Virus record (IMG/VR): IMGVR_UViG_3300021168_000013
Length of the DNA stretch: 64,000 bases
Reading direction: 5' to 3' (one strand)
Source of the DNA: a virus
Position 1 is the first letter of the stretch. The number at the start of each line of letters is the position of its first letter. The position numbers were made by a program, and so were the translations under genes. The notes under the pieces were generated by a model that made no database searches, had not been told where the DNA came from, and saw nothing but the letters and a program-made list of their open reading frames with translations. This document shows positions 1,782 through 21,485 of this stretch, piece by piece.

Positions 1782-1784
1782 TTT

Positions 1785-2567: not shown

Positions 2568-2572
2568 AATTT

Positions 2573-4069: not shown

Positions 4070-4073
4070 TCAC

Positions 4074-4081
4074 TATTTATT
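4074..4081 (+). promoter_or_regulatory. Candidate late promoter TATTTATT
   Basis: Recurrent TATTTAT(A/T) motif ending 7 nt before ATG 4089. Confidence 0.5.
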
Positions 4082-4088
4082 ATAAAGT

Positions 4089-5429
4089 ATGATAAATTAT
4101 TCTGCGTCAATTAAAATTAGCCAGTTAAACCCAGAAACTGGAAGCCTTATATCAATGGCGGATTTTCTTCCCATTGTTAATAGCGGTAGCTTAACCACGT
4201 ACAGAATAAGCCTAAGTAGTGTTCAGAATGCATTTTTTAATACATCAAGTATTGGTTCTGATAAAAATATAATATTCCAGACTGGAAGTGCATTAACAGC
4301 ATCAAACAATCTAAATTATAACTATAGTTCAAGTATATTATTTGTTTCTAATTCAATTCAAACTCCTAGTATAACGGCGAGTTTGGCTGGGAGCGCAAGT
4401 TATGCTGCCACATCGAGTTTCGCCACAAGCGCAAGTTATGTTGCTTCGGGATTTTTAACGGTTGCAACTAGTGCAAGTTATGTTTCTGGTAGCAATGGTG
4501 TTTTGGGTAATTTATATTTTAATGTTAATGGGCAAAAGATATCAACATTTTATCCAACTTACACAAATACGGATTCTGGATTATATTTTTCATCACAAAC
4601 CCCAACTTCTTCTGCTCATGCTGAAATTTATTTGGCACCATCTGGAAGTATAACATCAAGTTTAAATGATTCCATTAATAATGTTGGTTTATGGATGAAT
4701 GGTATTTATAATGGTACTACCAATCCAATACCTGTATATTTAGGAGGAAATCCATCATCCAACCCACCAAGTGCCACCTTGACCGTTCTACCAAATGGAT
4801 TTGTCGGTGTTGGAACCATGAATCCTTCTAGTAATTTGCAAGTCATAGGTATAATAAATGCCACGGGAATTACCTCAAGTTTGGCGGGAACAAGTAGTTG
4901 GTCTTCCAATTCCGTTAATTCATTGAATTCAACCATTTCACAGACCAGTAGTTATATAAATTATATTGGTCAGAACACAGGAACAAGTAGTTATGCTATA
5001 ACAAGTAGTTTTGCCCAGTCCGCTAGTTATGTTACACCGTCTGGAACAACAATTAAGGGATTTGCAATGGTAACGGGTAGTAATGCTGGGTCTAAAACCA
5101 CCGATCCATTAACAGTAGTTACAGGATATAATATAGCATCCGTTTCTCCTCTTGGATTATTGAATGTATATTCAGGATCATCGTTTTCACAGTATTGTTG
5201 GGGAGTTACATTTGTTAATGCGGTCAGTTCATCTAATTATATAGTGATAGGTAATGGTTGGGAAATGACTATTACTACTGGTTCAGGACATGCATCTGTA
5301 TTTTTGCCACAAACCGCATCAATACTCAACAACAGAACAACTACGGCGTTTACTATGTCAGCACAGGGAGGATGGGCAGGAACTCCTAATGATTTATGGG
5401 GAATGAATTTTCAAGTAATAGGACATTAA
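4089..5429 (+). CDS. Tail fibre/receptor-binding protein
   Basis: N-terminus IKISQL...DFLPIVNSGSLTTYRISL is paralogous to that of the 2573 gene. Contains ASYA repeats and a VGVGTMNPSSNLQVIG fibre repeat. Confidence 0.7.
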   Translation: MINYSASIKISQLNPETGSLISMADFLPIVNSGSLTTYRISLSSVQNAFFNTSSIGSDKNIIFQTGSALTASNNLNYNYSSSILFVSNSIQTPSITASLAGSASYAATSSFATSASYVASGFLTVATSASYVSGSNGVLGNLYFNVNGQKISTFYPTYTNTDSGLYFSSQTPTSSAHAEIYLAPSGSITSSLNDSINNVGLWMNGIYNGTTNPIPVYLGGNPSSNPPSATLTVLPNGFVGVGTMNPSSNLQVIGIINATGITSSLAGTSSWSSNSVNSLNSTISQTSSYINYIGQNTGTSSYAITSSFAQSASYVTPSGTTIKGFAMVTGSNAGSKTTDPLTVVTGYNIASVSPLGLLNVYSGSSFSQYCWGVTFVNAVSSSNYIVIGNGWEMTITTGSGHASVFLPQTASILNNRTTTAFTMSAQGGWAGTPNDLWGMNFQVIGH

Positions 5430-5432
5430 TTT

Positions 5433-8400
5433 ATGGCAGATACTATACCAATTAGTCAATTAGCACAGCTAACTGTTAGTCAAATAACAGCTAGTGCAAT
5501 ATTTCCTATTTCAAATATATCTGATAACACCACGTTCAAAGTACTTGTTGGTGATTTGGACGCTTATTTTAAAACGTCAACTGGCAGTGTTCAGAATTTT
5601 GGTGGAACTTCAAAATATGCAATAACTGCATCCTATGCTACATCCAGTGCTACAGCAAGCTTTTTGAAATTTCCGAATGTTTCTTCAGCCAGTTATGCGG
5701 TAAAGGCTATAAGTTCTAGTTACGCAAATTCAAGTAGTTTCAGTACAAACGCTATATCTGCGGGATATGCAAGTGTGGCAAATGTGGTATTAAATCCATT
5801 TACTGCTACATTGGTTCCATCGTCATCCGCAACTTTATTTTTGCAGTATAATCCAGCAAATCCAAATAACGGAACGGCAAGTTATTCTATATTAAGCCAA
5901 AACAGTGTGACATCCAGTTACGTTAACGGAGCAAACATTTTCGCATCAAGCAGTGGATTTGCAAACAGTGCAAGTTGGTCACCAATTCAATTACCTAACA
6001 TAACCAATTCCGGAAGTTATACTGGAATATTACAAAATAATCCAAAATATGCATTGGATATTAGTGGAAGTATTGGTAATAGTTCTACGGGTAATGGTAT
6101 AAACCTTACTTTGGATAATGGCAGTAATACAATTTTACAATCTAATGCTGCCCAAGGTAGTTGGCATTTTGATGGTACTGGTATATTTTATTTTATATCA
6201 TCAGGAAGTGGGATAGTTCAATATAGATTTGGTGGACTTGGTAATAATTCTTATGTCGGCGGAAGTGGAAACGGTGATTTCTTTGGGGTAAATACTGAAT
6301 TACCACAACATACATTGGACGTTAATGGGGATATTAATTTTTCTGGAAATTTATCAAAGTCAGGCAATCCATTTACAGCATCATCTGCTATTTCTTCAAG
6401 TTATTTGGATGGAAACATTGTAAATAATAGGTTTGCACACACTAATGCTATAGCTGTAGATGATGGTACTGGTAATATGATATTGAATACCAATGGTGCC
6501 ACGATAAAGATAACACGAACTGGTATGGTTGGTATAAATAATACTAATCCACAACAGGTATTAGATGTTAACGGATTTATTGGTAATAGTGTCGGTAATG
6601 TAAATATAATATCTGCTAATGGGGCATTAAGTGGTAGCAATTCAGGGTCAAGTATAACACTCAGTACTGGATTTGGATATAATGGCTCATTCTATAATGG
6701 GTCTAGTATTGCTGTACAAGGTGGAAATGGACTTTCCAGTGGAAGTGGAGCAAATATCATACTAAAGACTGGTCAACGTTCTGATTTTTCGGTAGGATCA
6801 GTGGGAATAAACACCAATAGTCCTAGCGCATCATTGGATGTAGTAGGAAGTATCAATTTTACTACTAATTTAAATAAGAATGGTGTCGCGTATGTTCCAC
6901 CAACCAGTTCATATTCATTGAATGCATTAACAGCTAGTTATATCAGTGGTGTTGTGGTATCTAGTTCATATGCAAATACCGCAACCAATTTAAGATATAA
7001 CAATCTTGGTTCCACCGTTGCTACTAGTGGAAATGGATTAATGTTAAATGATACTATCGGTTCATCCATGGGATTAATTGGTGGTGGTATTGATATTATC
7101 GAAGGTTCTGGTTCCACAACAGTCCCTTTTACTTTAAACAATCCTAGTAATCAACCAATTGCCATTATTGATAGATCAGGTAATTATACAACAACTGGGT
7201 ATGTTTCGGCGTCCAACTTTTATGGAACGGCAAGTAACGCAGTAAACGCATTAACAGCATCATACGTTAGTGGAAGCAATAATAGCAATAGTAGTTCCTA
7301 TGCATTATTTGCATTGAATTCGTTAACCGCTTCATATTCGTTGAGTTCATCGAATTTATATGTAGTATCATCATCATACGCAACATCTTCATTAACAGCA
7401 TCGTATGCATTAACAGCATCATACGTTAGTGGAAGCAATAATAGTAATAGTAGTTCCTATGCAAACTTCTCGTTGTCATCCAGTTTCTTACCGAATGGAT
7501 ATAATGCCTCAACGTTTACTGGAATTCTTACAAATAACGTGTCTAATTTTGATTTGGCAAGTTGGTATAATGTTCCATTCAAGCCATCCAATACTCAATC
7601 TGTATTCATAGCAAATACAAATGGAGCGCCCGGATTCCAAGCAACAATAGTGATTGGAAACTTTTGGTATGGGGGAACTACATTTGAGCCTAGTAGTAGT
7701 AATTCTGTTATAGCCAGAGTAAATATGGACAGTATGACATATCAAACGGCAAGTTTGACTGGATCAGTAGGTTATACAATTGGGGAATTTACATACAATT
7801 CAAGCTCGAATCAATTATTTGCCTCAACTGTTGGTGGTAATGTATTTTTAATAAACCCAACCACACTGTCATCTTCATTGGTGATATATAATGGACAAAG
7901 TGGTAGTTTTGGCAGAGCGTCATCACTTACTAATGATGGGACATATCTATATGTAATAAATAATGCTGATAACAATGTGTTTAAGTATCAGATGTCAAAT
8001 TATGCATTGGTTGCATCGGCATCGATTGCTGGATTTGGAAGAATAGCTAACATAAAATACGATGGTCAATATTTATGGATTCCTTCACAAGACATTAATG
8101 GTGCTATAGCAAGAATGAATCCAACAACATTGTCATATATTTCAGCATCAGTGGTGGGTGCTGATTTTATAACTGATGATATGGCAATCACTCCATCGCA
8201 TGTATATTTGGGATGCGAGGGGTCTGTAACTAATCAAGTATATGTTATTAATAAAACCAATTTAAGTTATACTAGTTTCTTTGTAGACAATATGTATGCA
8301 ATGTGGTATGATAATGAATATGTGTGGATGGGTTCATCAATAACTTCAAGTTTATATAGACTAGACCCGACCACAATGCTGATGGCTACATTTAATTGTG

Positions 8401-8912
8401 GGGTTAATTTACCTAATGAAATTGTGGGGGATGGTAAACGACTCATGCTCACTTCGTGGTTATCAAATCCTTGGCAAGTTACCCGTTATGTACCTGAATC
8501 TCCGATTTACATGACACAATTAGACTATGCTGCTAATTTTGAGTCTATATTTGGAATATCATTTTATACTGGAGAAGATTTAACTACTGGTATATTTAGT
8601 ACAAATCAGATAAATATCTGGTCTGGAAAAATATCAAATGAAGTCGGTGGATTTTCGATAGACACAACAAACGGTGGAGTTGTGATTGGTAAAGCAATAA
8701 CAGCATCAGCAATAAATTCATTAGACGTGTATGGAAACATATCATGTTCCGCAATTACCGCATCGTTATTTACAGGAACAAGTTCTTATGCAAATACAGC
8801 ACAAACATCATCATTTATGAGATTGTTTAATCCCACAACCAATTCTTGGTATGCAATACAGATATCCGGATCAGTTGGTCAAGAAACTTTATTATTCACA
8901 CCAACTACCTAA
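5433..8912 (+). CDS. Long tail fibre/adhesin with probable beta-propeller domain
   Basis: IPISQL N-terminus, many SSYA repeats, GINT-P...LDVNG repeats, and a propeller-like region at about 7600-8480 with repeated DGxYLY/DGQYLW/DNEYVW strands. Confidence 0.7.
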   Translation: MADTIPISQLAQLTVSQITASAIFPISNISDNTTFKVLVGDLDAYFKTSTGSVQNFGGTSKYAITASYATSSATASFLKFPNVSSASYAVKAISSSYANSSSFSTNAISAGYASVANVVLNPFTATLVPSSSATLFLQYNPANPNNGTASYSILSQNSVTSSYVNGANIFASSSGFANSASWSPIQLPNITNSGSYTGILQNNPKYALDISGSIGNSSTGNGINLTLDNGSNTILQSNAAQGSWHFDGTGIFYFISSGSGIVQYRFGGLGNNSYVGGSGNGDFFGVNTELPQHTLDVNGDINFSGNLSKSGNPFTASSAISSSYLDGNIVNNRFAHTNAIAVDDGTGNMILNTNGATIKITRTGMVGINNTNPQQVLDVNGFIGNSVGNVNIISANGALSGSNSGSSITLSTGFGYNGSFYNGSSIAVQGGNGLSSGSGANIILKTGQRSDFSVGSVGINTNSPSASLDVVGSINFTTNLNKNGVAYVPPTSSYSLNALTASYISGVVVSSSYANTATNLRYNNLGSTVATSGNGLMLNDTIGSSMGLIGGGIDIIEGSGSTTVPFTLNNPSNQPIAIIDRSGNYTTTGYVSASNFYGTASNAVNALTASYVSGSNNSNSSSYALFALNSLTASYSLSSSNLYVVSSSYATSSLTASYALTASYVSGSNNSNSSSYANFSLSSSFLPNGYNASTFTGILTNNVSNFDLASWYNVPFKPSNTQSVFIANTNGAPGFQATIVIGNFWYGGTTFEPSSSNSVIARVNMDSMTYQTASLTGSVGYTIGEFTYNSSSNQLFASTVGGNVFLINPTTLSSSLVIYNGQSGSFGRASSLTNDGTYLYVINNADNNVFKYQMSNYALVASASIAGFGRIANIKYDGQYLWIPSQDINGAIARMNPTTLSYISASVVGADFITDDMAITPSHVYLGCEGSVTNQVYVINKTNLSYTSFFVDNMYAMWYDNEYVWMGSSITSSLYRLDPTTMLMATFNCGVNLPNEIVGDGKRLMLTSWLSNPWQVTRYVPESPIYMTQLDYAANFESIFGISFYTGEDLTTGIFSTNQINIWSGKISNEVGGFSIDTTNGGVVIGKAITASAINSLDVYGNISCSAITASLFTGTSSYANTAQTSSFMRLFNPTTNSWYAIQISGSVGQETLLFTPTT
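7248..7463 (+). repeat. 57-bp direct repeat (7248-7304 and 7407-7463), one mismatch
   Basis: gcattaacagcatcatacgttagtggaagcaataatag(c/t)aatagtagttcctatgca occurs twice, 159 bp apart and in frame (ALTASYVSGSNNSNSSSYA). Confidence 0.95.
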
Positions 8913-8917
8913 ACTTT

Positions 8918-11329
8918 ATGAAGAAAAATATAATTAACATAATATTAAGCGTGTTTGTCACGATATTATTGTTCACAACAACTGCATTGGCTGGAACATC
9001 AACCGTTTCAGTCGATAATAGTGGAAACATAGTGCATCCCGGTGGTAAGATTTCTGGAATTTTTGGTGGAACCGCTAGTTTTAACAATTTATTACCTGCT
9101 TCCGTAGCTGCTAGAATGCTGACAAACGGAAGTTCAATAACACTTACTATATGGACTAATTCAGATGGTTCCACTAACTATGGAATTTCTCTAGTTCCTG
9201 CTCCATATATGGCTGGAGATAACGCAACGAACACTTCACAAACTGTGCCACCTAATACAAATTCTTTGGTTTCGGCGGCACAGGCTTATATCATTGCTAG
9301 TCAATTAATGGCAAATATTCCTGCATCGGGAATTTCCGCTGCTCAACCGGTTCTTGTATTAGAATCGCAGGGTGGTGATATTGGTCAGGCAATGAATGCC
9401 CAATTCGCCGCTGGTATGCAAAGAAAAGGTTATATTAGAATAATTGGCTATGAAAATATTGAGGGACCTAATGCTCCATATAGTACTCCAGCATTAGATT
9501 CGATATTGAATTATATGGGAGTGAGTTCGGAGATTGGGTCATCCACAAATCAGTCAGTCACATATTCGGTTTCATATACTAATAACAATCAATATATTTC
9601 TCGTTATCAGAATAATGCATCATATCCCAACATGACACTTTCCATGAGAAAGTTATTGTCACGACAACAGACTAATAGTGTTGTTTTATATATAGCTGGA
9701 CCTTCAGTAGCATTAAGTGATTTTCTAAATAGTCCAGCAGACCAATACGGAGGAACCGGAACCCAATTAATCAGTAATTTTTGTTCATATGCAGTTATTA
9801 TGGGTGGCGGATATCCAAGTAATCTATTTGAGTTTAACTTAACTACCTCACCATCCACAGATAATTCATATGGTGCTCCGTTATGGCCAACGAACATACC
9901 ACAGTATTGGGTTGATTATCAAGCTGGTACAAATATATACTTATTGACAACAAATTTCTCTCAATATCTTGAGGCACAGAGTCCTTTGGTTACATATGTG
10001 ACACAGTCTGGAAACTATGTACAAAACGGAAGATGGAGTTGGGATTCTATGGCATTTTTGGCAACTTATCCACAGTTCATGACAAACTTTTTTGGTATAC
10101 AAATTGGACACATTGATACTGGTCTTACTAATAATATTAGTTTATCAACAGGAACTAATTGGTGGTTACCAAGTGCTACTTGTACATTCCAGAATCATAT
10201 TTCATTCACTAATTTCCCAGCATTAACCAGCATCCTTAATCTTATGTGTTTGGTGTCTCCTGATTCAGCATCATCAGATCATGTGATGTTTTCAAGTGGT
10301 ATTACTAACCAAAATGAATGGCCTAAAACCTATACAATGTATCCTGAATTTAATGCTGCTTCAGGAACATGGATGACCAACCTTATTCATGAGCAATTTG
10401 AGACTGGTTGTACTCCTTGGCCAAATATTTATGGTATTTGGACAAATAACTTTGGCGGGTATCCATTGAATTTCAATAGTATGCTGGGAGAAGTAGACTG
10501 GCATCAAACTGGAACTAACGCTATAGTTGGGAATTCATCGGCGGAATTTTTTGGAACTGCTGGAACAGTATATGCTGGATTTGAGTTTACAAGTATCAAC
10601 GTGACCAATGTATATGTTCATATGAACTTGGTGATGAGTGCTCTTCCCGGATCCACGGATAGCGCATTTCAATTATGTGCACAACCATTCATTTTAGGTA
10701 ATTCTGGACAAGCTGCCAATGTTAACATTACTACTGGTGGTAATATACAATTATATAACGGATCAACCACGGCGTCATCGGTTGGGGCTATGGTGCCAAA
10801 TGTGGCATACGATATATGGATGTTTTATTCTACATCGGCTACTTGTTGGGCCGCATTTTCCACAAATGGAACAATCCCAACATCCGGCAACAATTATGTT
10901 AGTGAAGCAGCCAACCATAGTTTGGGAATATCAGGAATTAATTTAACATCACCATATCAAGCAAATTTCTTTGTTGATAATTTAATTGTGTCAACGAATC
11001 CTATTCCTATACAGTTCCCACCAAATCAATATCCTTATGTTAAATTAATTAATCCATTAACTATTAATGTGCCATGGACAAATATATATCCATTTAGATT
11101 GGATGTTACGGCAACTGTCCAAACCATCAATAGTGCCAGTTTGATTAATTCTGATATTTATATAACCAATTTTACATCAGGTCTTTATAGTTTGGATAAT
11201 CCAAATGAGGCGTTTGCAGCGACAAATCCTGTAACGTTAAATACGTTAACTGTATTTCCAAATGAAGTTATATGTGTCACCAACGTTGCTAATTGTTCAT
11301 TAATTGGTAGTTATATAGTTCAGCATTAA
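8918..11329 (+). CDS. Secreted protein with nucleoside-hydrolase-like (IU-NH fold) domain, probably catalytically degenerate
   Basis: Start moved to ATG 8918, giving the Sec-type signal MKKNIINIILSVFVTILLFTTTALA. The central region matches the nucleoside-hydrolase-like pattern (VVLYIAGPSVALSDFLNSPADQY...AVIMGGGYP...FEFNL...WP...RWSWDSMAFL), but the N-terminal DxDxxxDD motif is replaced by ESQGGDIGQ. Confidence 0.6.
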   Translation: MKKNIINIILSVFVTILLFTTTALAGTSTVSVDNSGNIVHPGGKISGIFGGTASFNNLLPASVAARMLTNGSSITLTIWTNSDGSTNYGISLVPAPYMAGDNATNTSQTVPPNTNSLVSAAQAYIIASQLMANIPASGISAAQPVLVLESQGGDIGQAMNAQFAAGMQRKGYIRIIGYENIEGPNAPYSTPALDSILNYMGVSSEIGSSTNQSVTYSVSYTNNNQYISRYQNNASYPNMTLSMRKLLSRQQTNSVVLYIAGPSVALSDFLNSPADQYGGTGTQLISNFCSYAVIMGGGYPSNLFEFNLTTSPSTDNSYGAPLWPTNIPQYWVDYQAGTNIYLLTTNFSQYLEAQSPLVTYVTQSGNYVQNGRWSWDSMAFLATYPQFMTNFFGIQIGHIDTGLTNNISLSTGTNWWLPSATCTFQNHISFTNFPALTSILNLMCLVSPDSASSDHVMFSSGITNQNEWPKTYTMYPEFNAASGTWMTNLIHEQFETGCTPWPNIYGIWTNNFGGYPLNFNSMLGEVDWHQTGTNAIVGNSSAEFFGTAGTVYAGFEFTSINVTNVYVHMNLVMSALPGSTDSAFQLCAQPFILGNSGQAANVNITTGGNIQLYNGSTTASSVGAMVPNVAYDIWMFYSTSATCWAAFSTNGTIPTSGNNYVSEAANHSLGISGINLTSPYQANFFVDNLIVSTNPIPIQFPPNQYPYVKLINPLTINVPWTNIYPFRLDVTATVQTINSASLINSDIYITNFTSGLYSLDNPNEAFAATNPVTLNTLTVFPNEVICVTNVANCSLIGSYIVQH

Positions 11330-11335
11330 TAGTAT

Positions 11336-14300
11336 ATGTTTAAAAAAGTTCTATTATTTCTATTAAGTGTATTTATATTCTGTGATATAAATGCATCAAT
11401 AATCCCATATAGTGCAGTAATCACTAATGCGGTCAATGAATTTACATTGGATATGGGTACTACTAATACAATTGATGGTATTTTTACAACAGGAACAAAT
11501 TACATTGTGACTCCAAGTTGGCCAAATACTACTGGTTTTGGTACTAATCCTATTGGAACAATTTCAGTGTATATTGGGAATACAAGCCCGGCCACAACAT
11601 TTGCGGGATTACAATGGGTTCCATATGACGCATGTTTTTCTAATGGAGTATTTAATGTGGGCGACAACTTAGAAACTCAAGCCTCTATACATTTCAGCCC
11701 ATTAATTGGTAGATATGTAACATTATTGTTGCAAACAAATCAAAATTGGTTTTCCACAAATAATAATTGGGTATTGGTTTCTCCTCCAGCAACATTAAAG
11801 TGGGATTGCTATACTAACCAGATTCATGGTTGCGTTGGAACAAATTATCCAAATTTAGATGCTGTGGTTGCAGCAACCACATCTGTAAACGGTGGATTGT
11901 TGCAAGATTCTTCTGATTTGAGTTATTATTTGAGTGAATTGGAAGGTAAGCCGGTGCCAATTATTCTATCATCACAAACCAATTCATATCCCGGTGTAAT
12001 TTATAGAGTGATCGATTTACAAAATCTTGCCCCAAACTATGCCGCACAACAGGCAAATATATTAAATGGAACATTACCAACAAACATCACGGTGAATGTT
12101 CAGGGCACTCGTGAGGTTGATTTTACTGGATGGCCATATATGGATGTGTGGTTTGGAGTAATCACGTTTTTGGAAAAACAAGGAGTACGATGGGTTTATG
12201 CTGATGAAGATGGTGATTATATACCTTATGGTAATGGAGTATCATTGTCATCTCTGCCATATAACTTTTCTCCAAGCGTTAGAAGTATATATGCTAATTT
12301 TAGTGTGCAACAATATTATCCTTGGAGTTTTGGAATTGTTGGCCCAACTAGACAGGGTTATTTATATTGGTGGAGAAACCATTGGACGAGTAGCGAAAAT
12401 GGATTTATTTTTTCTGGGAACGAAATACAAAAGGCATCGGCACCCGGTGGATTGAGTATTTATTACTCAACAAATAATAGTGAATTTTCAGGATATCCAC
12501 ATAATTATAATAATGTTGTTCCTAGCTCAATACTAGAATTAACTAACCAAGTGATTAATGGTGTTCTTGTGGATACTAATTGGTGGGGATATAGAGGAGG
12601 TCAATATGTAAATCCTACTACTGGAGTTTACGATGGAAGTCCATATCAATTGACTTGGTCACAAACTAGTTCGAACTTAATAAAATGGGTGGCTCAAAAA
12701 ATGATTGCGGTAGACACCTCAAATCCATTAGATTCAATATCACCTTTAACATATAAACAATGGAGCAGATACTATGGTATACTTCCTATTGATGCCACAC
12801 TGTGGTCAACTAATCAAACCGAAGTTTCTTTGGACTCTCCTTTACAACCTGCGGGAGACGGATGGGTAAATGCAGGTGGAGCCTATTCATATTCACCACA
12901 ATATTATTATTTAATTACTAACGTTGCATATCAAGTCACTCAGTTAGGTGGAAATCAAACTGTAATGGGACTGGCATATGCTAACGTTAACGCTGCGCCT
13001 CCTAATTTCAATAAATTTCCATCAAATATCCATATGCAAGTATGTGTTTATGGTCAACCCGTTTTATCGACTGCTTCTCCGCAGAATATATCTATATCTA
13101 ACAATTGGGTGGCTTGGAACAATTTGACAACCAATTTAGGTGTATATGATTATCAATTATTATTAACGGATTTTTCACAACAAAATCCGTTGTTACCAGT
13201 TCCAGAAGTAAGTGGTATGGTTGATAGGGCTAAATTCCTACAAAACGAGGGAGTGTTTGAGGCGGGTTGTCAGGCTACCCCAAATCAAATTATTGATAAT
13301 CCTTGGGATTATTACGCGTATCCACGAGTATGGTGGGATAAAACTCAAACCGCATCTAATTTATTAAGCGAATTCTTTACTGGATTCTATAATGAATCGG
13401 CGTCGCCGATGCTTAATTTTTATAATATTTTTGAGCAAAATGTCACAACGAATAATATTGGAATGCATGGACAGTCTAGTGGTTATGCTGAATCCATATT
13501 GCCCGGAACGTTTACTTTTCCAGTGCTTTATGCGATGCAAACAAATCTTAATTTGGCTTTTTCTGATTGTACCACATGGATTACATTACAGAGATTGAAT
13601 GTTATTTCCAATCAGTTTGCATGGGTGATTGGTCAAATGAACTTGACGGGAGTGAATTTAAATGACCCTACGATATATACGCCAGTCCCTACTAATTCAA
13701 TATTTACATTATTTGAAAATGATTTTACGAAACTACAGACAAGGGCTGGTAACCCATATCTTGATGCTTCTTCTGGGAACAATTATGCTACCACTAGTAA
13801 CGCTGGTATAGGTGCCACAAATCCGTGGACTTTACAATATCAAGAAAGTAGTATACAAAAAACTTTTAATTTTACAAATTCTGGATATTATAGGGTTATA
13901 GTAAATGGTGGTTACGGATATTTGGGTAATCCCGGATTATGTAGAGTGACAATAGGAAATAGTTCGGCTCCGATTATATTTACTAATGATGGTAGTCCAG
14001 CGGGATATATTCATGGATATACTAATTTTTTATCAGTCAAAGCTGGTGCGAATGTCATGCAAATTGATTCGTTTAATGAAACAAACAATGCAGCGTCGCC
14101 CGGTGTCATTTACACAGCATCAATCCAATATTTGTTGAACACTGCACCGACTGCAACATTTGCGGCATCCACACCAACCAGTGGAGCGTACCCATTAACA
14201 GTCAATTTTAATTACACAGGAACAAATGGAACTAGTTTTCTATGGAATTTTGGTGATGGTTATACTAGCACCAGTGAGAATGTATCCCATACATATGATT

Positions 14301-17236
14301 TAGCAGCAACAAATACTGTAACTTTGGTGGTTAACGGAATGATAACAAATTCGGAAGCAGGATTGGTTGTTACCACAAATGGTACATTTAATCCTACAAA
14401 CTATCTATATCAATTATCTCTTGGAACCAATGGTACGTCGGCTTACGCTCCTGCATCTGGAAATGCATCATCAACTACTTTGTGGTTAGGGACAAACTCA
14501 ACATTATGGACTGCACCAACTAGTTTAGCTTGCGTTGGATATGCTTCGGCTATATCATCGCAATGTTGTTTAGTTGCATCCAATTTGGTTTTCATCTCAT
14601 CGCATGTTAATTTCAGTGGAAAAACCCTTACTTTTCATGACACTAACGGAACGGGATGGTTTCCGGTAGTGACAAACCAAGTATTATTGGGGGACGATTT
14701 CGGTATAGGTCAATTGGATAGATCGGCTCCTGCAAGTATTCCATTACCATATTTATTCTCAACTAACTCAATCAATAAATTACAAGGTAAAACAATAGTG
14801 AATTATCCAGCATTTTGGGCACACAATTCTACCGCTCAAATTGAGTACATGTACATAGATGCGGCATATGATGGTCCGGGCGTAAATACTGGTAGTGGAG
14901 TTGAATATGGGTCTTGGATATCTCCTTATGCCAATGTTACTCAAGGACAGTGGGCAGCGTCATATGCCGTCAGCGGAGATTCATCCAGCCCAATATTTAC
15001 AATGTATGATACCAATTTGGTTTTGTTGGGTGCAATGTCTGGTACAGGAGGATCGTTGGGTGGAGGACTAACCACAGTTGGTCTTGGTGTTTTTTATAGT
15101 GGCTACACTAATTTCTCAATTCTTCAACACAGTGGGTTAACGAACGGATTACAAATATTGAATTTGGGTACAAATATCACCAGTGTAACTGTCACAGATT
15201 TTGGTGCAATAGGAGATGCTATTCAATTTTCAGCAAGCTGTGTATCAAATTCATCATTAATTGTTACTACAAGTTCTGTTCCCAATACTGCAATTGGTGA
15301 TAACATAGAAATATATAATGCAGGACCTATTACTCCATTAGGTATTAATAGTTTTGGTGTATATACAAATGGGTATTATGATTTAATTGCAACAATAACT
15401 AACATAGTACATGGAACCAATGTTTATATTTCGCAGGTGTGTTCTAATACAATAAATAATGCGTTCACAACTTATGGATATGATAATGAGACTGCAATAA
15501 ATTCCGCATTGTCTTATATTTATGCATCAGGTAGTCCAAATGTTAATCTTTTGTTTCCCGCTGGAAATTATTTAATTTTATCAACCAATACAGATTTGGT
15601 ATATGCTTATTGTGGTGTATTTTTGCGACAAGGTTGGATTAATATTATTGGTGCGGGAACTAATAACACTCGTTTAATTGGTCAGGGGGCAAGAGTAGTG
15701 AAACCAATAGGTTCTGGATCAGAAGGAAATGGATTCTTTCCACCATCTGGCCAGTTTGCTTCCACAAGAGGAATCATGTTTGATGAGATAAATATCGGTG
15801 TTTTCAGTGGAACAAATACACCATTAACTATTCAATCGATAAACATAGATGGGGGGATACCAAATGTAGCAACTAGGGATAATTATAATCGCAATGATGG
15901 ATTTTTTATGAATCCTATAGATGGTATGGGTTTAGATGAAACTCATTCAGCTATAGAAGCATCATATCTATACAATTCCAATGGTGTACCGTCTGCTGGA
16001 AGTACATACTATAGTTGCGATTTTAGTATATATTGTACTAATACGATATTTGATAATTGGGCAGGAGAAGTGCTTAAGAATCCAAATCACAATACCAATG
16101 CAAATGTTTGCACATATTACAACAATGTATTTTACGATGATAGGTTTGATGGAGTTAATATCGGACAAGTTATGGTAGTATCAAACAATGTATTTGACAC
16201 AGTTGGACAACCAATTGAGATGTATACAGCATCAATGACCTCTCCTACGTATTTTGAGGACAATCTTGTGACTAATTGTTTCGGTGAATGTGCTATAGGA
16301 TTTTCACGTGGTTATAATAATATTCCTTTTGTTTATTTTATAAATAATACTTGTTACTATTTTAACCCATCACAAGGTAACATGTTTTTAAATTTAAATC
16401 ATTTGGTTAATTGTGTTGTATCTAATAATTATTTTTGCGACACTGATCCAAATGGAGGGAATGGTGAATTTTCTATAGTAACAGGGTCTACTAGCGGAGA
16501 AATAGCATTTACATGTCAATCCAATATTTTGGTTTTAAATAACACATTTGTTGATACGCCATTTATGATAGGTTCATGGAATGGATTAACAACTTTCCCT
16601 GCGAACGACATATATCATTCGGATACAATCATTGCTGGTGGAAATAAAATGATAAACACTAATACATCCGGAACTGTTATTGGGCACTTATCTCTTAATT
16701 ATGGATGGACTACCAATTGTTCATTTAATAATAACGATTGCAGTCAATTCAATAGTATTGGTGGAAACAGTGTTTATGTATTTCCAACATTATACAATTT
16801 TGGATTAACATTTGATTCATCTTTACCAACAAATTTAGTACAATATGATCAAGTATATACTACTAATGGTTTGGTTATAACAACTAATAATGTATACACA
16901 ACGTATCCTTTGGTATCAACCAACAATACCTATTGGACAGAACTCAATACTGGAAATGCAGTTAATTATATAAGTTATGGATTTGGTTCGAAATTTTATC
17001 AGATTGGCACACAATCAACAATATTGATAAATAGTGATTCTAATTGTATACCATCGGGTGCACAAATCACGATGTTCAATGATAATTTGGTAAATTTTCC
17101 ATTATATTTAAACAATGCTAATGGAACAAAAGTTACGGTTACTAATCAAACCGCAGTTACATTGAATTGGTCCACCAATAATGTATGGGTGGTGGCTCCG
17201 ACAACCGTGATATATTTCCTACCATTTCAATTTTAA
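11336..17236 (+). CDS. Giant secreted multidomain protein: GH20/GH67-N-like + DUF4838-like, PKD, trypsin-like protease, pectin-lyase-like beta-helix
   Basis: Signal MFKKVLLFLLSVFIFCDINA. WFGVITFLEKQGVRW and GLAYANVNAAPP...YAYPRVWWD...EFFTGFYNESASPMLNFY resemble DUF4838. The PKD motif is APTATF...PLTVNF...FLWNFGDG...VSHTY. Trypsin-like residues are SSH / DD / GDSSSP. The beta-helix starts with VTDFGAIGD...DNETAINSAL...LLFPAGNYLI. Confidence 0.65.
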   Translation: MFKKVLLFLLSVFIFCDINASIIPYSAVITNAVNEFTLDMGTTNTIDGIFTTGTNYIVTPSWPNTTGFGTNPIGTISVYIGNTSPATTFAGLQWVPYDACFSNGVFNVGDNLETQASIHFSPLIGRYVTLLLQTNQNWFSTNNNWVLVSPPATLKWDCYTNQIHGCVGTNYPNLDAVVAATTSVNGGLLQDSSDLSYYLSELEGKPVPIILSSQTNSYPGVIYRVIDLQNLAPNYAAQQANILNGTLPTNITVNVQGTREVDFTGWPYMDVWFGVITFLEKQGVRWVYADEDGDYIPYGNGVSLSSLPYNFSPSVRSIYANFSVQQYYPWSFGIVGPTRQGYLYWWRNHWTSSENGFIFSGNEIQKASAPGGLSIYYSTNNSEFSGYPHNYNNVVPSSILELTNQVINGVLVDTNWWGYRGGQYVNPTTGVYDGSPYQLTWSQTSSNLIKWVAQKMIAVDTSNPLDSISPLTYKQWSRYYGILPIDATLWSTNQTEVSLDSPLQPAGDGWVNAGGAYSYSPQYYYLITNVAYQVTQLGGNQTVMGLAYANVNAAPPNFNKFPSNIHMQVCVYGQPVLSTASPQNISISNNWVAWNNLTTNLGVYDYQLLLTDFSQQNPLLPVPEVSGMVDRAKFLQNEGVFEAGCQATPNQIIDNPWDYYAYPRVWWDKTQTASNLLSEFFTGFYNESASPMLNFYNIFEQNVTTNNIGMHGQSSGYAESILPGTFTFPVLYAMQTNLNLAFSDCTTWITLQRLNVISNQFAWVIGQMNLTGVNLNDPTIYTPVPTNSIFTLFENDFTKLQTRAGNPYLDASSGNNYATTSNAGIGATNPWTLQYQESSIQKTFNFTNSGYYRVIVNGGYGYLGNPGLCRVTIGNSSAPIIFTNDGSPAGYIHGYTNFLSVKAGANVMQIDSFNETNNAASPGVIYTASIQYLLNTAPTATFAASTPTSGAYPLTVNFNYTGTNGTSFLWNFGDGYTSTSENVSHTYDLAATNTVTLVVNGMITNSEAGLVVTTNGTFNPTNYLYQLSLGTNGTSAYAPASGNASSTTLWLGTNSTLWTAPTSLACVGYASAISSQCCLVASNLVFISSHVNFSGKTLTFHDTNGTGWFPVVTNQVLLGDDFGIGQLDRSAPASIPLPYLFSTNSINKLQGKTIVNYPAFWAHNSTAQIEYMYIDAAYDGPGVNTGSGVEYGSWISPYANVTQGQWAASYAVSGDSSSPIFTMYDTNLVLLGAMSGTGGSLGGGLTTVGLGVFYSGYTNFSILQHSGLTNGLQILNLGTNITSVTVTDFGAIGDAIQFSASCVSNSSLIVTTSSVPNTAIGDNIEIYNAGPITPLGINSFGVYTNGYYDLIATITNIVHGTNVYISQVCSNTINNAFTTYGYDNETAINSALSYIYASGSPNVNLLFPAGNYLILSTNTDLVYAYCGVFLRQGWINIIGAGTNNTRLIGQGARVVKPIGSGSEGNGFFPPSGQFASTRGIMFDEINIGVFSGTNTPLTIQSINIDGGIPNVATRDNYNRNDGFFMNPIDGMGLDETHSAIEASYLYNSNGVPSAGSTYYSCDFSIYCTNTIFDNWAGEVLKNPNHNTNANVCTYYNNVFYDDRFDGVNIGQVMVVSNNVFDTVGQPIEMYTASMTSPTYFEDNLVTNCFGECAIGFSRGYNNIPFVYFINNTCYYFNPSQGNMFLNLNHLVNCVVSNNYFCDTDPNGGNGEFSIVTGSTSGEIAFTCQSNILVLNNTFVDTPFMIGSWNGLTTFPANDIYHSDTIIAGGNKMINTNTSGTVIGHLSLNYGWTTNCSFNNNDCSQFNSIGGNSVYVFPTLYNFGLTFDSSLPTNLVQYDQVYTTNGLVITTNNVYTTYPLVSTNNTYWTELNTGNAVNYISYGFGSKFYQIGTQSTILINSDSNCIPSGAQITMFNDNLVNFPLYLNNANGTKVTVTNQTAVTLNWSTNNVWVVAPTTVIYFLPFQF

Positions 17237-17238
17237 TA

Positions 17239-18204
17239 ATGAATAAAATTTTCAAATTTGAGAATCTAGTAGGCATCTCTGCATTATTTGTTGCTGGTTG
17301 TGCGGCATATTATAGTATAATTGGAATATCTACATTATTTAGTGGATCGTTTGTGGCAGCAATGATAATGAGTTTTTCTCTGGAATTGGGCAAACTCACA
17401 GCCACCAGTTATCTATTTAGATTTTGGCAAAAAACTCAATTATATCTTCGAGTGTATCTTATAATGGCGGTATTGATACTTAGTTTAATCACTTCTCTTG
17501 GTATATTTGGATATTTGAGTGGAGCATATCAGTCTTCTGCAATGGAAAACCAATTATCGGAAGAGAAGATATCTACTATAGAAAGTCAGAGAGAATATTC
17601 ACAAAGTAAGATTGTGGACGCAAGAAAACAAATAGAACAATACACTAAATTAAGGTCACAACAGGAAAATAGAATGGATCAGTCCGTGACGAATTTATTG
17701 ATTGCTAGAAATCCAATAGAGATGGAACAATTACAAGAACAGACCAAAGAAATGATAGACCAAAATCATACGGATATTGAGGCACAGAATCAAATCATTC
17801 AGAATAGCACCAAGGATTTAGAAAATTTAGATTCACAAATATCGGATATTCAATCCAAAATAGGCGGCAAAAAAGATATGATAATCTTTAAATTTGTGGC
17901 CGATGCAGTTCATATGAGTATGAATAGTGCTGTAAAATGGTTTATACTCCTATTGATAAGTGTATTTGATCCTTTGGCGTTATGTCTATTATTAGCATAT
18001 AACACCTCAATAACCAAAGAAAAAATCATACCACTTAATGATATTATAGAACCACCATTGGGACAATCTATTGTTAATACGATAGCGGAACCAGTAGTTA
18101 GTAAGATAGAGGAATCTATAACTGGTTCAGTGCAACCATCGGTTACTCCACCACCAAAGACACGACAATTACCAGCAAAATTGCGCGGAATGTTCTCTTT
18201 TTGA
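17239..18204 (+). CDS. Membrane protein (about 3 N-terminal TM helices, long coiled coil, C-terminal TM)
   Basis: Start moved to ATG 17239. Hydrophobic segments are ALFVAGCAAYYSIIG, FVAAMIMSFSLELGK, YLIMAVLILSLITSLGIFGYLS and WFILLLISVFDPLALCLLLA, with a Gln/Glu-rich heptad region between them. Confidence 0.75.
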   Translation: MNKIFKFENLVGISALFVAGCAAYYSIIGISTLFSGSFVAAMIMSFSLELGKLTATSYLFRFWQKTQLYLRVYLIMAVLILSLITSLGIFGYLSGAYQSSAMENQLSEEKISTIESQREYSQSKIVDARKQIEQYTKLRSQQENRMDQSVTNLLIARNPIEMEQLQEQTKEMIDQNHTDIEAQNQIIQNSTKDLENLDSQISDIQSKIGGKKDMIIFKFVADAVHMSMNSAVKWFILLLISVFDPLALCLLLAYNTSITKEKIIPLNDIIEPPLGQSIVNTIAEPVVSKIEESITGSVQPSVTPPPKTRQLPAKLRGMFSF

Positions 18205-18415: not shown

Positions 18416-18682
18416 ATGTTGACTGCATTTATTATAGTATCGATACTGCTAACCATAGCGATATGTGTTATTGGGGCCGGGATAATTGTTATTGGAATAC
18501 AAACCGATAAAATAACCACTTATGAAAACTGGGTTATTGAGTTTCATAAGGATGTCAACAATACATACACCAAGTTAAAACAGCTAGATGAACGAAATAT
18601 TTTTTCAAGAGACGATGAGGTAGGTTTTGCTTTTTCTCAAATGGTTTCCATAATGGAGAAACTTAAGGATAAAATTAAATGA
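18416..18682 (+). CDS. Small membrane-anchored coiled-coil protein
   Basis: Long hydrophobic N-terminus (MLTAFIIVSILLTIAICVIGAGIIVIGI). ATGA overlap with the next gene. Confidence 0.75.
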   Translation: MLTAFIIVSILLTIAICVIGAGIIVIGIQTDKITTYENWVIEFHKDVNNTYTKLKQLDERNIFSRDDEVGFAFSQMVSIMEKLKDKIK

Positions 18683-19898: not shown

Positions 19899-21485
19899 AT
19901 GGCATATTTTGAGAAAAAATCAGGAGTTGGAGGCAATTCTAAATTGAATGATACAGGACTCGGCTCAATCATGGGTAATTCAATGGGAGATTCCGTTGAA
20001 TTTTATGAAATGGAACCCGGCATTGTATTGGATATTATTCTTGATGAAAATCATCCAGTTTTAAAGAATAAAAAAATAGACGTATCTTCATTTCCTGATA
20101 ATTACGATAATACATCTCCTAGTCCAACCGATGTAGATTATACATGGATAGGTAGGGCATTGGTTAGAATGGTAAATAGTCAACAGGCTATTGCTAAAGA
20201 AAGATTGAATTGGGCACTTCCGCTCGATGTCAGTGGTATTATCGAATATCCTCTTATAAACGAACCTGTTGTGGTTGTTAAATATTTCGGTAATCTATAT
20301 TATACAAAACGCTTAAATCTTAGGAATTTTATAAATAATTGCGGAGATTATAAATTTGAGAAAGTTTATGGAATCAATAATGGTTTAGGCACCTTCGGTC
20401 CTCAATCATTATTAACAAATAAAACCTATATTAACAATGATTACATTGGAAGTCTGGGTTCATACTTTCTAAGTAACAATTTTATACGTCGTTTAAAGAA
20501 ATATGAAGGAGACACCACCATTGAGAGTAGGTTCGGGCAATCTATACGATTTGGTGCATACGATGATAACAGACAAAACGATAAGGGTGATAACGCAAAT
20601 TACATTGGAGATACCACATTAAATCCACCCAGTGTGGGTGGTGGAAATCCCATGATTCTTATCAGAAACAGACAGCGTCTGATAGCATCCAATTCAGCCC
20701 AACAGCAATATCCAAAATTGCCCCCAATTCCACCAATAACAAATTCCGAGAAAAATGTAGGAGGATTGATAAATGAAGATATAAATAATGACGGGAGTTC
20801 TATACATATGACTTCGGGTTTAACGGTGTCAAAATGGCAACCAACTGTGTATAAATCGATGTTTGGTGTTAGCGAAGAACAGTCAGCATTTAATGGATCA
20901 AGTACCTTTCAATACCCGATTTTAGATGGTGATCAGATTATTATAAACTCAGATAGATTGATATTGAGTTCCAGATTCGGTGAGACTTTTCATTATAGTA
21001 AGAAGAGATATGGAGTTGTTACTGATAGTGAAATTACCATGGATGCACAGGATCAGATAGTTATCACCACGAATAATAAGACCGTCATAAACAGTCCAGA
21101 AATATATCTTGGCCAATATGATCAGACCAGTGAACCTGTATTATTAGGACAAACCACTGTAAATTGGATGTTTCAATTATGTGGATGGTTACTTGCACAT
21201 ACTCATTTGTATAATCACACCCATCCAGATGCTCAGGGTGGTGACACAGGTAATTCAAATGCAAATATAACACAAATGAGTATTGAACAACAGCAGTTAA
21301 TAGCATTACAAACTCAATTAAATGAGCTATTAAGTAGACGAGTTTTTGTTACAGGTGGAGGTTTCGCTCCCGGAGCTAACGGTGGGACACCGAGTGGATA
21401 TGACGGAACTGGACAAGCAACTACTATAAACGTGGTAAGTGGAGAAGGGGTTAGTGGAGGATTTTCAGGAACTAACTACAAATAA
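19899..21485 (+). CDS. Baseplate hub/central spike (T4 gp5-like, no lysozyme domain seen)
   Basis: EGDTTIESRFGQSIRFG motif, beta-strand repeats (QIIINSDRLILSS), EPVLLG and a His-rich tip (HTHLYNHTHP). It lies upstream of gp25 and gp6. Confidence 0.7.
   Translation: MAYFEKKSGVGGNSKLNDTGLGSIMGNSMGDSVEFYEMEPGIVLDIILDENHPVLKNKKIDVSSFPDNYDNTSPSPTDVDYTWIGRALVRMVNSQQAIAKERLNWALPLDVSGIIEYPLINEPVVVVKYFGNLYYTKRLNLRNFINNCGDYKFEKVYGINNGLGTFGPQSLLTNKTYINNDYIGSLGSYFLSNNFIRRLKKYEGDTTIESRFGQSIRFGAYDDNRQNDKGDNANYIGDTTLNPPSVGGGNPMILIRNRQRLIASNSAQQQYPKLPPIPPITNSEKNVGGLINEDINNDGSSIHMTSGLTVSKWQPTVYKSMFGVSEEQSAFNGSSTFQYPILDGDQIIINSDRLILSSRFGETFHYSKKRYGVVTDSEITMDAQDQIVITTNNKTVINSPEIYLGQYDQTSEPVLLGQTTVNWMFQLCGWLLAHTHLYNHTHPDAQGGDTGNSNANITQMSIEQQQLIALQTQLNELLSRRVFVTGGGFAPGANGGTPSGYDGTGQATTINVVSGEGVSGGFSGTNYK

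Follow-up and report, generated by a model that had tools for sequence, protein, structure and literature searches.

Sec-type signals on two giant proteins of the tail-fibre module of a T4-like phage, and a possible role in degrading host slime

Introduction

Phage polysaccharide depolymerases are classically regarded as virion parts that are assembled in the cytoplasm. In the large T4-like phage (myovirus) analysed here, the tail-fibre genes end with two genes whose products, P0001 and P0002, carry N-termini of the signal-peptide type. This raises the question of whether these proteins leave the host cytoplasm and, if they do, what they act on. The window in which they were analysed is a 64,000-nucleotide stretch of viral DNA from record IMGVR_UViG_3300021168_000013. 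Tentatively, and at somewhat short of an even chance, we propose that P0001 and P0002 are Sec-exported slime-degrading proteins and not conventionally docked fibres.

Organization of the block

The two tandem ORFs reported in a preliminary description of this DNA are both intact (803 and 1966 aa; Table 1), and they are as tightly coupled to their neighbours as had been described, with gaps of 5, 6 and 2 nt. The 2-nt figure presumes that the downstream gene starts at 17239, and this start is backed by alignment to relatives. Five fibre-like ORFs without signals lie upstream of the block, where four had been counted earlier. The TN/NT-richness that had been thought to mark out the two proteins is present but not distinctive. 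An N/T-rich, K/R/D/E-poor composition is common to all the fibre-like ORFs of the window and to the bacterial homologues discussed below, and P0001 and P0002 are therefore not set apart by composition. Scans of the surroundings of the block for sigma-70, terminator and T4-late motifs detected neither promoters nor terminators beyond the level of chance.

A paralogue of P0001, named P0157, is encoded by the 183-kb phage genome in a second fibre operon, ~10 kb past the end of the window. A place within a fibre operon, with gaps of 2–6 nt and with a paralogue in another such operon, is the expected site of virion receptor-binding proteins, and it weighs against our proposal. The GC3 of the two genes (0.24–0.26) equals the phage norm, whereas that of the bacterial genes is 0.51–0.83, which indicates that P0001 and P0002 have long been resident and maintained in phage genomes. 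Recent capture from a host is disfavoured by this fully phage-like GC3.

Table 1. Genes and features of the block and of the adjacent membrane-protein genes, in window coordinates.
Feature	Position	Strand	Basis or remark
P0001 gene	8918-11329	+	
P0001 predicted Sec signal peptide, residues 1-25	8918..8992	+	sequence features; modelled as a single helix; predicted cut after A-L-A
P0001 N-terminal region	8993..9322	+	~80-residue segment missing from paralogue (alignment A7); without Pfam or docking-profile match; low model confidence
P0001 nucleoside-hydrolase-like (IU-NH) domain, degenerate Asp cluster	9323..10282	+	phmmer matches over residues ~130-450 carry PF01156
P0001 ConA/LamG-like lectin beta-sandwich, residues ~531-706	10535..11017	+	
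P0001 C-terminal ~85-residue tip domain, swappable	11069..11326	+	identity pattern against paralogue, P0022, P0024
P0002 gene	11336-17236	+	
P0002 predicted Sec signal peptide, residues 1-20	11336..11395	+	sequence features; homologue comparison; predicted cut after I-N-A
P0002 N-terminal beta-sandwich domain, common to bacterial family	11396..11845	+	alignment A3; all-beta in AF2 model
P0002 DUF4838 glycosidase-like core (GH115/GH67/GH84-type)	11855..13645	+	
P0002 CBM6/35/36-like carbohydrate-binding module	13697..14137	+	
P0002 PKD domain	14138..14374	+	PF18911 6.5e-10, PF00801 3e-6; PDB 2kzw and collagenase PKD domains; missing in P0003
P0002 probable S1 (trypsin-fold) protease-like insert	14498..15181	+	lead only; ESM-Atlas neighbours; missing in P0003
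P0002 C-terminal module: probable right-handed beta-helix glycanase and terminal domain	15182..17233	+	homology to P0118, P0006/P0007; ESM-Atlas
Two conserved membrane-protein genes, outside block	17239-18204 and 18416-18682	+	homologues in 17 related phage loci

Synteny comparison shows that the block is variably present. In 17 related phage loci without P0001 and P0002, where the whole 8.3 kb is missing, homologues of the two membrane-protein genes (40–47% identical) are found at the corresponding position. Retention of the membrane genes where the block is missing does not support the suggestion that both together with the block form one envelope module. A viral scan for the product of the gene at 17239 gave no match.

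Predicted Sec signals

The signal-type N-termini ascribed to both ORFs are upheld by rule-based features and by conservation, on which our signal-peptide call is founded. The N-terminus of P0001 has a net charge of +2, an uncharged run of 22 residues, and Ala at positions -3 and -1 before residue 26. That of P0002 likewise has a net charge of +2, followed by an uncharged hydrophobic core of 12 residues, with Ile at -3 and Ala at -1 before residue 21. Both c-regions conform to the signal-peptidase I rule, P0001 as A-x-A and P0002 as I-x-A. The 12-residue Kyte-Doolittle maximum is 3.1–3.2 in the two proteins; among the 35 ORFs of the window, an N-terminal value above 3 is confined to these two and the adjacent small membrane-protein ORFs (17239 and 18416), all others staying at or below 1.7. 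The I-x-A site of P0002 recurs at the same position and with the same pattern in its bacterial homologues (I-Q-A, M-Q-A, I-L-A).

Conservation of signal character goes together with divergence of the signal sequence. P0002 and its orthologue P0003 are 30% identical in the signal and 80% over the next 40 residues, and P0001 and P0157 are 36% identical in the signal against ~88% in the body, the signal nevertheless being kept. P0023/P0157 are 77%-identical relatives of P0001 in which the signal segment is kept at 36% identity. In a neutral-drift simulation, 8–9% of the drifted signals held a hydrophobic core of at least 2.8, whereas both real partners are at 3.0 or above. Cysteine accounts for 34 of the 2769 residues of P0001 and P0002 but for 10 of the 2935 residues of the five adjacent signal-less fibres (3.6-fold; Fisher p = 1e-4), an enrichment which fits oxidative, extracytoplasmic folding.

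On these features of sequence, both products look like genuine export substrates, in line with the earlier suggestion that they are exported. Export looks functional rather than vestigial, given signals kept despite divergence, cysteine enrichment and phage-like GC3.

Two further sorting routes were considered and found no support. That the conserved Cys16 within the signal of P0002 might be a lipoprotein cysteine is spoken against by the preceding residue, which is Phe, and by the homologues, in which the predicted cut lies downstream at I/M-x-A. Nor is a second sorting signal apparent at the C-terminus, be it a T9SS domain or a PEP-CTERM anchor: the C-terminal segments have no Pfam match and, by eye, neither a PEP motif, a full transmembrane stretch nor a basic tail.

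P0002 is a chimera with a bacterial-type exoenzyme at its N-terminus

P0002 is a chimera of a PVC-type secreted DUF4838 enzyme, a PKD domain, a probable S1-protease-like insert and a probable beta-helix. Its residues 21–935 align end to end, at 35–51% identity, with bacterial proteins of ~950–1000 aa, nearly all of which have classical signal peptides. The match of P0002 to DUF4838 (PF16126) scores 47.6 bits (cut-off 26.6), and the full-length bacterial homologues, held by PVC MAGs, carry PF16126 as well. By structural modelling the folds are GH115/GH67-like and CBM35/36-like, a multi-domain arrangement shared with GH115-GH67-like hydrolases, and alignment A3 shows acidic residues that do not vary across the family.

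The genomic setting of the homologues is informative. The nearest of them (39% identity) lie inside exosortase-linked exopolysaccharide (EPS) loci of Verrucomicrobiae MAGs. In four Verrucomicrobiae/Verrucomicrobiota MAGs the homologue is placed between GT4 glycosyltransferases, an acetyltransferase, a Wzy_C protein and the exosortase EpsH, and the order GT4, GT4, hexapeptide transferase, DUF4838, EpsH, GT4 is conserved in L027, L028, L029 and L031; the phage gene itself is in a fibre operon. At least the DUF4838 module of P0002 derives from host-lineage genes. The bacterial homologues are just 39% identical and their genomes are ~20 points richer in G+C, a distance that counts against our proposal.

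The beta-helix and S1-protease assignments are leads only. The neighbours of the insert in the ESM-Atlas are 'serine protease family' clusters, mostly from Verrucomicrobiota (score 0.93), and candidate triad motifs are seen near residues 1090, 1120 and 1216; the insert has no Pfam or PDB sequence match. Residues 1283–1966 have Beta_helix and Pect-lyase clusters as ESM-Atlas neighbours (feature similarity 0.90), again with no Pfam or PDB sequence match for the beta-helix module. This C-terminal module is 32% identical to the stand-alone protein P0118, which bears its own signal peptide, and is homologous to the C-terminal parts of P0006/P0007, which are repeat proteins that bear signals. A Pfam search at E <= 1 with eight sub-domains of the two proteins of the block gave no match. 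The orthologue P0003 is 66% identical to P0002 although it belongs to a phage whose terminase is only 26% identical, which indicates horizontal exchange between unrelated phages.

A bacterial ancestry for the N-terminal module brings up an alternative that we consider improbable, namely that bacterial genes were captured along with their signal peptides and that the products are cytoplasmic, virion-bound or lysis-released depolymerases, the N-terminal segment having no role. The module of P0002 was indeed inherited, signal position included, from a bacterial exoprotein family, and many phage depolymerases work without export. However, signal character has been retained in two independent pairs after divergence to 30–36% identity. 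Fully ameliorated GC3 points to a long residence, and a targeting signal that was useless and potentially harmful should have decayed over that time. Cysteine enrichment matches extracytoplasmic folding, and a functional-looking signal would send the protein to Sec regardless. The preliminary description had also offered captured host genes with relic signals as an option. Host-lineage origin holds up for the DUF4838 module, but the relic part does not agree with signals that are kept in diverged orthologues, nor with Cys-enriched proteins of phage base composition.

P0001 as a probable lectin with an exchangeable tip

P0001 is best read from its sequence as a lectin-type protein that binds glycans and ends in an exchangeable C-terminal tip. 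Its nucleoside-hydrolase-like domain is degenerate. The Ca2+-binding Asp cluster of the PF01156 family (D-x-D-x-x-x-D-D) is absent from P0001, the D-x-D...D-x-D-D residues (D-T-D in homologues) being replaced by E-S-Q...D-I-G-Q in both P0001 and P0023. P0001 itself falls below the Pfam thresholds for nucleoside hydrolase, and its AF2 model (mean pLDDT 57.6) is poor outside residues 140–295 and 540–700, so that this fold is assigned from sequence links alone. The tip is ~25% identical to that of the paralogue against ~88% in the body, and it is 30% identical to the C-terminus of P0022, a signal-bearing protein of the unrelated phage L002, and 44% identical to the fragment P0024. The lectin domain resembles CBMs of phage baseplates. 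Viral and metagenome scans with P0001 and its paralogue gave no match. The mosaic of P0001 and its paralogue, a conserved body with a divergent C-terminal tip, is typical of receptor-binding proteins and is a further point against our proposal.

Relation to the tail fibres

Three of the five signal-less fibre-like ORFs carry an N-terminal docking motif. With hhalign, the fibre profile (A6) aligned at one column only with P0001 and P0002 (E 0.37 and E 0.64), and this profile comparison confirms that both lack the ASYA/ISQL fibre motif, as had been noticed by eye. Neither protein belongs to a PHROG family at E <= 0.01 or to an NCBIfam family, and megablast and tblastn against 50,697 phage records gave no match for the proteins of the block. 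With signal-bearing PVC exoproteins as the best non-phage homologues, and with no PHROG tail family and no docking motif, the description of the two proteins as being of bacterial cell-surface type appears apt.

It is nevertheless conceivable, though unlikely, that P0001 and P0002 are receptor-binding proteins that are themselves exported: a depolymerase spike and a lectin fibre, moved by Sec and folded in the periplasm, would join the tail or baseplate sites at the breach of the envelope or at some other extracytoplasmic step. Their position inside fibre operons, twice in the genome, would suit this, as would the conserved body and swapped tip of P0001/P0157, the tip domain shared with the signal-bearing protein of L002 and the likeness of the lectin domain to baseplate CBMs. 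In L002, moreover, three signal-bearing enzymes have one N-terminal motif in common that directly follows the predicted cut site, in the manner of docking modules. As a fibre docking motif this was rejected; in a comparison with the fibre docking profile by hhalign, the segments expected to pair did so, but the alignment was not significant (E 0.28). P0001 and P0002 are without the motif found in the signal-less fibres, and over the whole of its first 915 residues P0002 is built like a free bacterial exoenzyme. Ordinary signal-less fibres are made from the same operon, so a cytoplasmic route exists. We know of no tailed phage in which tail parts are attached outside the cytoplasm, and none was found in the literature searched.

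We regard as doubtful, and quite unlikely, the specific form in which part of the host-recognition apparatus of this myovirus, namely a lectin fibre whose tips can be exchanged and a multi-enzyme depolymerase, matures outside the cytoplasm. Both would be exported by Sec and folded with disulfides in the periplasm, and only at or after envelope breakdown would they be added to particles that were built in the cytoplasm and are complete in other respects. If true, two assembly routes would run side by side in one phage, one for signal-less docked fibres and the other for signal-bearing exported appendages. The presence of signal-less docked fibres beside signal-bearing undocked enzymes in one genome offers a clean natural contrast for the wider hypothesis that some tail appendages might mature extracytoplasmically.

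Proposed role in degradation of host slime

In the slime-degrading role that we tentatively favour, the P0001 and P0002 pre-proteins would be made late, alongside the tail fibres, translocated by the host Sec machinery and cut by signal peptidase I, and disulfide folding would take place outside the cytoplasm. P0002 would be a multi-enzyme depolymerase of the host exopolysaccharide or capsule. Its N-terminal 915 residues would be the phage copy of a secreted DUF4838 (GH115/GH67-like plus CBM) enzyme from Verrucomicrobiae exosortase-linked EPS loci; in phages it would have acquired a beta-helix glycanase-like module by fusion, and here PKD and S1-protease-like domains as well. P0001 would act as the lectin-type binder. 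The enzymes may work in the periplasm and then, after lysis, as free enzymes, so that both nascent and surrounding EPS are cut; progeny could then leave, spread through the slime matrix and avoid sticking to debris. Among the roles listed earlier, capsule or EPS degradation is the best supported. One point against the proposal is that it gives no account of how a periplasmic enzyme could get to EPS beyond the outer membrane ahead of lysis.

Export might also serve another purpose. Destruction or masking of the phage's own glycan receptor (as superinfection exclusion, or against re-adsorption of progeny) and release of sugars for host metabolism by an auxiliary metabolic gene would draw on the same evidence for export, and a lectin protein with variable tips would suit receptor masking. 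We judge such purposes decidedly improbable, however. Expression from a late structural operon would come too late for exclusion or metabolic gain, and the homologues are found in EPS-synthesis loci, not in catabolic ones. In favour of the metabolic option, CAZymes on soil and peat viral contigs have reportedly been read as metabolic genes. Against it, a recent survey argues that viral CAZyme signal stems for the most part from core viral functions (bioRxiv 10.1101/2024.12.20.629349).

Under apparent selection, the phage keeps secretion signals on giant glycan-active proteins, one of which descends from an enzyme that PVC bacteria encode within the loci for their own slime synthesis. Should export be real, host secretion, oxidative folding and a copied EPS-trimming enzyme would be turned against the matrix of the host. 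This would bear on how phages get through the biofilms and flocs of soils and peat, on whether viral CAZymes in metagenomes are to be read as core infection functions or as metabolic genes, and on the search for depolymerases of the poorly studied EPS of Verrucomicrobia.

Comparison with known systems

Phage beta-helix depolymerases are normally virion-bound, a further point against our proposal. P22 gp9 and CBA120 TSP1-4 are virion-associated depolymerases or tailspikes without a signal peptide and with an N-terminal virion-attachment domain. Like phage tailspikes, the block lies in the fibre module, has a probable beta-helix and glycan-binding modules, and has undergone horizontal exchange, but it differs from them in having Sec-type signals and in lacking a docking motif and a PHROG tail family.

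Phage genes with host-type Sec signals have been described in Porphyromonas phages and were read as adapted to the secretion system of the host (Matrishin et al. 2023, PMC10367356). Those cases concern genes of unknown function, capsid proteins and spanins of Bacteroidota prophages, with no fibre-module enzymes named, whereas fibre-module enzymes are involved here. The Q-rule of Bacteroidetes is inapplicable to the block, the predicted mature N-termini being G and S.

Export of phage enzymes by host Sec before lysis is established for Lys44 of the Oenococcus phage fOg44 and for SAR endolysins (PMC6116005). These set a precedent for P0001 and P0002, which likewise are phage products with a predicted signal. 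Unlike these small peptidoglycan hydrolases of lysis cassettes, the block encodes giant glycan-active proteins in a fibre module, without a muramidase or amidase domain.

Periplasmic glycanases such as AlgL, PslG and BcsZ are encoded in EPS operons. GH115/GH67 alpha-glucuronidases (PDB 4c91, 4zmh, 1l8n) are ~10% identical to P0002, with low whole-chain TM-scores (0.3). In Pantoea stewartii, WceF of the stewartan locus is a Tat-exported EPS hydrolase with a tailspike fold (PMC7949094). In contrast to WceF, which is host-encoded, Tat-dependent and a single beta-helix, P0002 is phage-encoded and has a Sec-type signal and a GH115/GH67-like core beside its beta-helix-like module. The likeness lies in the pairing of an exported glycanase with an EPS biosynthesis locus, as in the Verrucomicrobiae homologues of P0002, and WceF demonstrates that a beta-helix of tailspike type can serve as an exported enzyme outside any virion.

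Gene layout and the 8.3-kb block

The window contains one long run of plus-strand genes, and its myovirus parts include a tail-collar fibre and a baseplate wedge. Five fibre-like ORFs, and not four as first counted, precede P0001 and P0002, the two large products of an 8.3-kb block. The gaps around these two genes are 5, 6 and 2 nt, in agreement with the close coupling reported before. Both are recorded on a 183,451-bp contig, and megablast and tblastn found nothing similar among 50,697 deposited phage records. A Shine-Dalgarno-like motif is absent upstream of about two thirds of the 35 window genes, where only A/T-rich leaders are present; the host may thus initiate translation independently of SD motifs. 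G+C of the genomes with PVC homologues is about 20 points above that of the phage.

Coordinates of features in the window and in the unrelated phage L002
Feature	Position	Strand	Description
Fibre-like ORFs	63-8912	+	five ORFs
P0001	8918-11329	+	803 aa, intact ORF
P0002	11336-17236	+	1966 aa, intact ORF
PKD and protease-like insert of P0002	14141-15181		G+C 0.40
Beta-helix-like part of P0002	15182-17233		G+C 0.325
C-terminal end of P0002	17201-17233		linker and short strand
Membrane-protein genes	17239-18204 and 18416-18682		directly after fibre module; conserved at 40-47% identity in every related phage examined
Product used for synteny	19899-21485		
Metallophos (Mre11-like) and SMC_N/AAA_23 (Rad50-like) domains	41002-44196		single ORF, 1064 aa
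L002 cassette	2188-13393		four consecutive signal-bearing proteins: 926 aa, 466 aa, P0003 (P0002 orthologue), 622 aa

Relatives of the synteny product are encoded in 22 loci. In 17 of them, whose upstream DNA extends for as much as 10 kb, a homologue of the 17239 membrane protein is present, and none of these 17 contains a P0001 or P0002 homologue. In all six loci with ORFs listed, the 18416 homologue and baseplate genes follow in the same order, and no large signal-bearing ORF is found. The block is therefore variably present and inserted at the fibre module's distal end. The preliminary description grouped the two membrane proteins with P0001 and P0002 as one possible envelope module. However, both are kept where the block is missing, and they are core genes rather than its partners. 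The 17239-18204 product has only a weak PHROG tape-measure match (E 3.5e-4). In T4, holin gene t follows the fibre genes, so the two membrane-protein genes may have a role in lysis. In five of the six listed relatives (L006, L010, L013, L017 and L023, about 6400-6900), a conserved 160-aa ORF separates the last fibre gene from the membrane-protein gene, in the position held by the 8.3-kb block in the window phage.

Signal-type N-termini

Inspection of the 35 window ORFs supports the earlier claim of two large proteins with Sec-type N-termini in the fibre module. In both, a basic n-region precedes a long hydrophobic core free of charges, after which comes the predicted small-residue cut site, A-x-A before residue 26 (P0001) and I-x-A before residue 21 (P0002). 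Elsewhere in the window, only the two small membrane ORFs, 17239 and 18416, have signal-type N-termini. The reported N/T-rich composition is real and also charge-poor, but it is not distinctive, being common to all fibre-like ORFs of the window and to the bacterial homologues.

Four indirect lines suggest that the signals are functional. First, in two pairs (P0002 with its orthologue P0003, and P0001 with its relative P0157) signals have diverged far more than the mature parts yet keep their character. P0001 and P0157 are about 88% identical in the body and 36% in the signal, and the C-terminal tip has diverged. Neutral drift was simulated to the divergence of the real pairs, with the base composition of the phage; in this crude test a hydrophobic core of at least 2.8 survived in only 8-9% of peptides, whereas both real partners keep at least 3.0. 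This retained character argues against the signals being relics, which we consider quite unlikely. Second, cysteine makes up 1.23% of P0001 and P0002 versus 0.34% of the five signal-less fibres next to them (p = 1e-4), and about 1% of other signal-bearing relatives. Third, GC3 of the two genes (0.24-0.26) is at the phage-gene level, compared with 0.51-0.83 in bacterial homologues; the genes are therefore old residents, and fresh capture from bacteria was rejected. Fourth, P0002 shows the same cut-site pattern as its bacterial family.

P0002 as a chimera of exoprotein modules

Pfam identifies DUF4838 and PKD domains in P0002. Residues 21-935 align end to end with proteins of about 950-1000 aa on long bacterial contigs (35-51% identity, about 90-100% coverage), nearly all of which carry classical signal peptides and share the conserved domain with which the mature part starts. 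When one genome per species was scanned, this N-module family fell within PVC bacteria, with best matches in uncultured Verrucomicrobiae (39% identity), followed by Planctomycetota and then Lentisphaerota/Victivallales.

Residues 1283-1966 are homologous to P0118 (646 aa), in which the module sits directly behind its own signal peptide; two signal-bearing repeat proteins also have homologous C-termini. By protein language model, this region neighbours beta-helix and pectate-lyase clusters at a score of 0.90, and the insert at 1014-1290 neighbours Verrucomicrobiota serine-protease clusters at 0.93. Because neither part has a match in Pfam or PDB sequence searches, these assignments serve as leads only. 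P0003 (66% identity to P0002) lacks PKD and insert and joins the N-module to the beta-helix module, and P0119 is the N-module alone, which suggests that the P0002 gene was built by stepwise fusion. The uneven G+C across the gene fits a mosaic origin. Members of the beta-helix module family (P0002, P0003, P0006, P0007 and P0118) end in a Pro- or Gly-rich linker and a strand of 7-11 residues, with a terminal Phe or Tyr in four of the five; this ending might serve as a tag for sorting or strand donation.

P0001 and its relatives

Exhaustive HMMER searches found one close relative of P0001, P0023 (about 75% identical and also signal-bearing), and two sets of partial matches. Matches to residues ~130-450 are PF01156 nucleoside-hydrolase-family proteins, whose Asp cluster is mostly lost in P0001. 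The last ~85 residues form a separate tip. An unrelated signal-bearing L002 protein has a C-terminus 30% identical to it, and the fragment P0024 is 44% identical. P0157, a signal-bearing protein of 730 aa whose tip differs, is a near-identical copy of P0023. It lies outside the window, is recorded on a contig of the same 183,451-bp length, and would represent a second P0001-type copy in the same genome.

Free enzymes or tail parts

Our tentative reading, held at somewhat below even chances, is that P0001 and P0002 are glycan-binding and EPS-degrading proteins, which would be exported by Sec, folded with disulfides, act in the periplasm and, after lysis, act as free enzymes. Alternatively, they might be exported and yet attached to the virion as appendages. 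Their position in the fibre operon, the receptor-binding-protein-like mosaicism of P0001 and horizontal exchange favour this; P0003 lies in a run of four signal-bearing enzymes in a phage with a terminase of only 26% identity. However, neither protein matches a PHROG tail family, neither N-terminus matches the fibre docking profile, and the first 915 residues of P0002 have the architecture of a free bacterial exoenzyme, so we regard virion attachment as fairly unlikely. The same comparisons agree with the earlier remark that the fibre N-terminal motif is lacking, and the best homologues outside phages, PVC exoproteins for P0002 residues 21-935, are not ordinary tail proteins. Export for exclusion or sugar scavenging appears very unlikely.

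The phage with the L002 cassette is represented by IMG/VR contigs L001-L004, and the ORFs on either side of the cassette do not resemble fibre genes. Its 926-aa protein is SGNH/GDSL esterase-like in the C-terminal part (weak NCBIfam match). Three of the four proteins share a motif of ~35 residues directly behind the predicted cut site, which is restricted to that phage family. Its match to the docking profile is not significant, and a reading as a fibre docking motif is not supported.

Comparison with known systems

Our literature search found no paper on giant glycanases with signal peptides in the fibre module of a myovirus. Endolysins are known Sec-exported phage enzymes (PMC6116005), and genes with signal peptides are on record for phages of Porphyromonas (PMC10367356). 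In two Verrucomicrobiae MAG loci (L027 and L028), the DUF4838 gene homologous to P0002 is preceded by genes for a Wzy_C protein, GT4 glycosyltransferases and a hexapeptide acyltransferase, and followed by those for exosortase EpsH and another GT4. This EPS-locus order is kept in four MAGs and partly in a fifth, with ~70% identity among the DUF4838 proteins of the four; no Wzy_C match was detected in L029 and L031. In other bacteria, EPS-trimming glycanases are placed similarly, as is WceF of Pantoea, which is Tat-exported and has a tailspike fold (PMC7949094). From this placement within EPS loci we infer that the P0002 N-module may be aimed at EPS of the host lineage.
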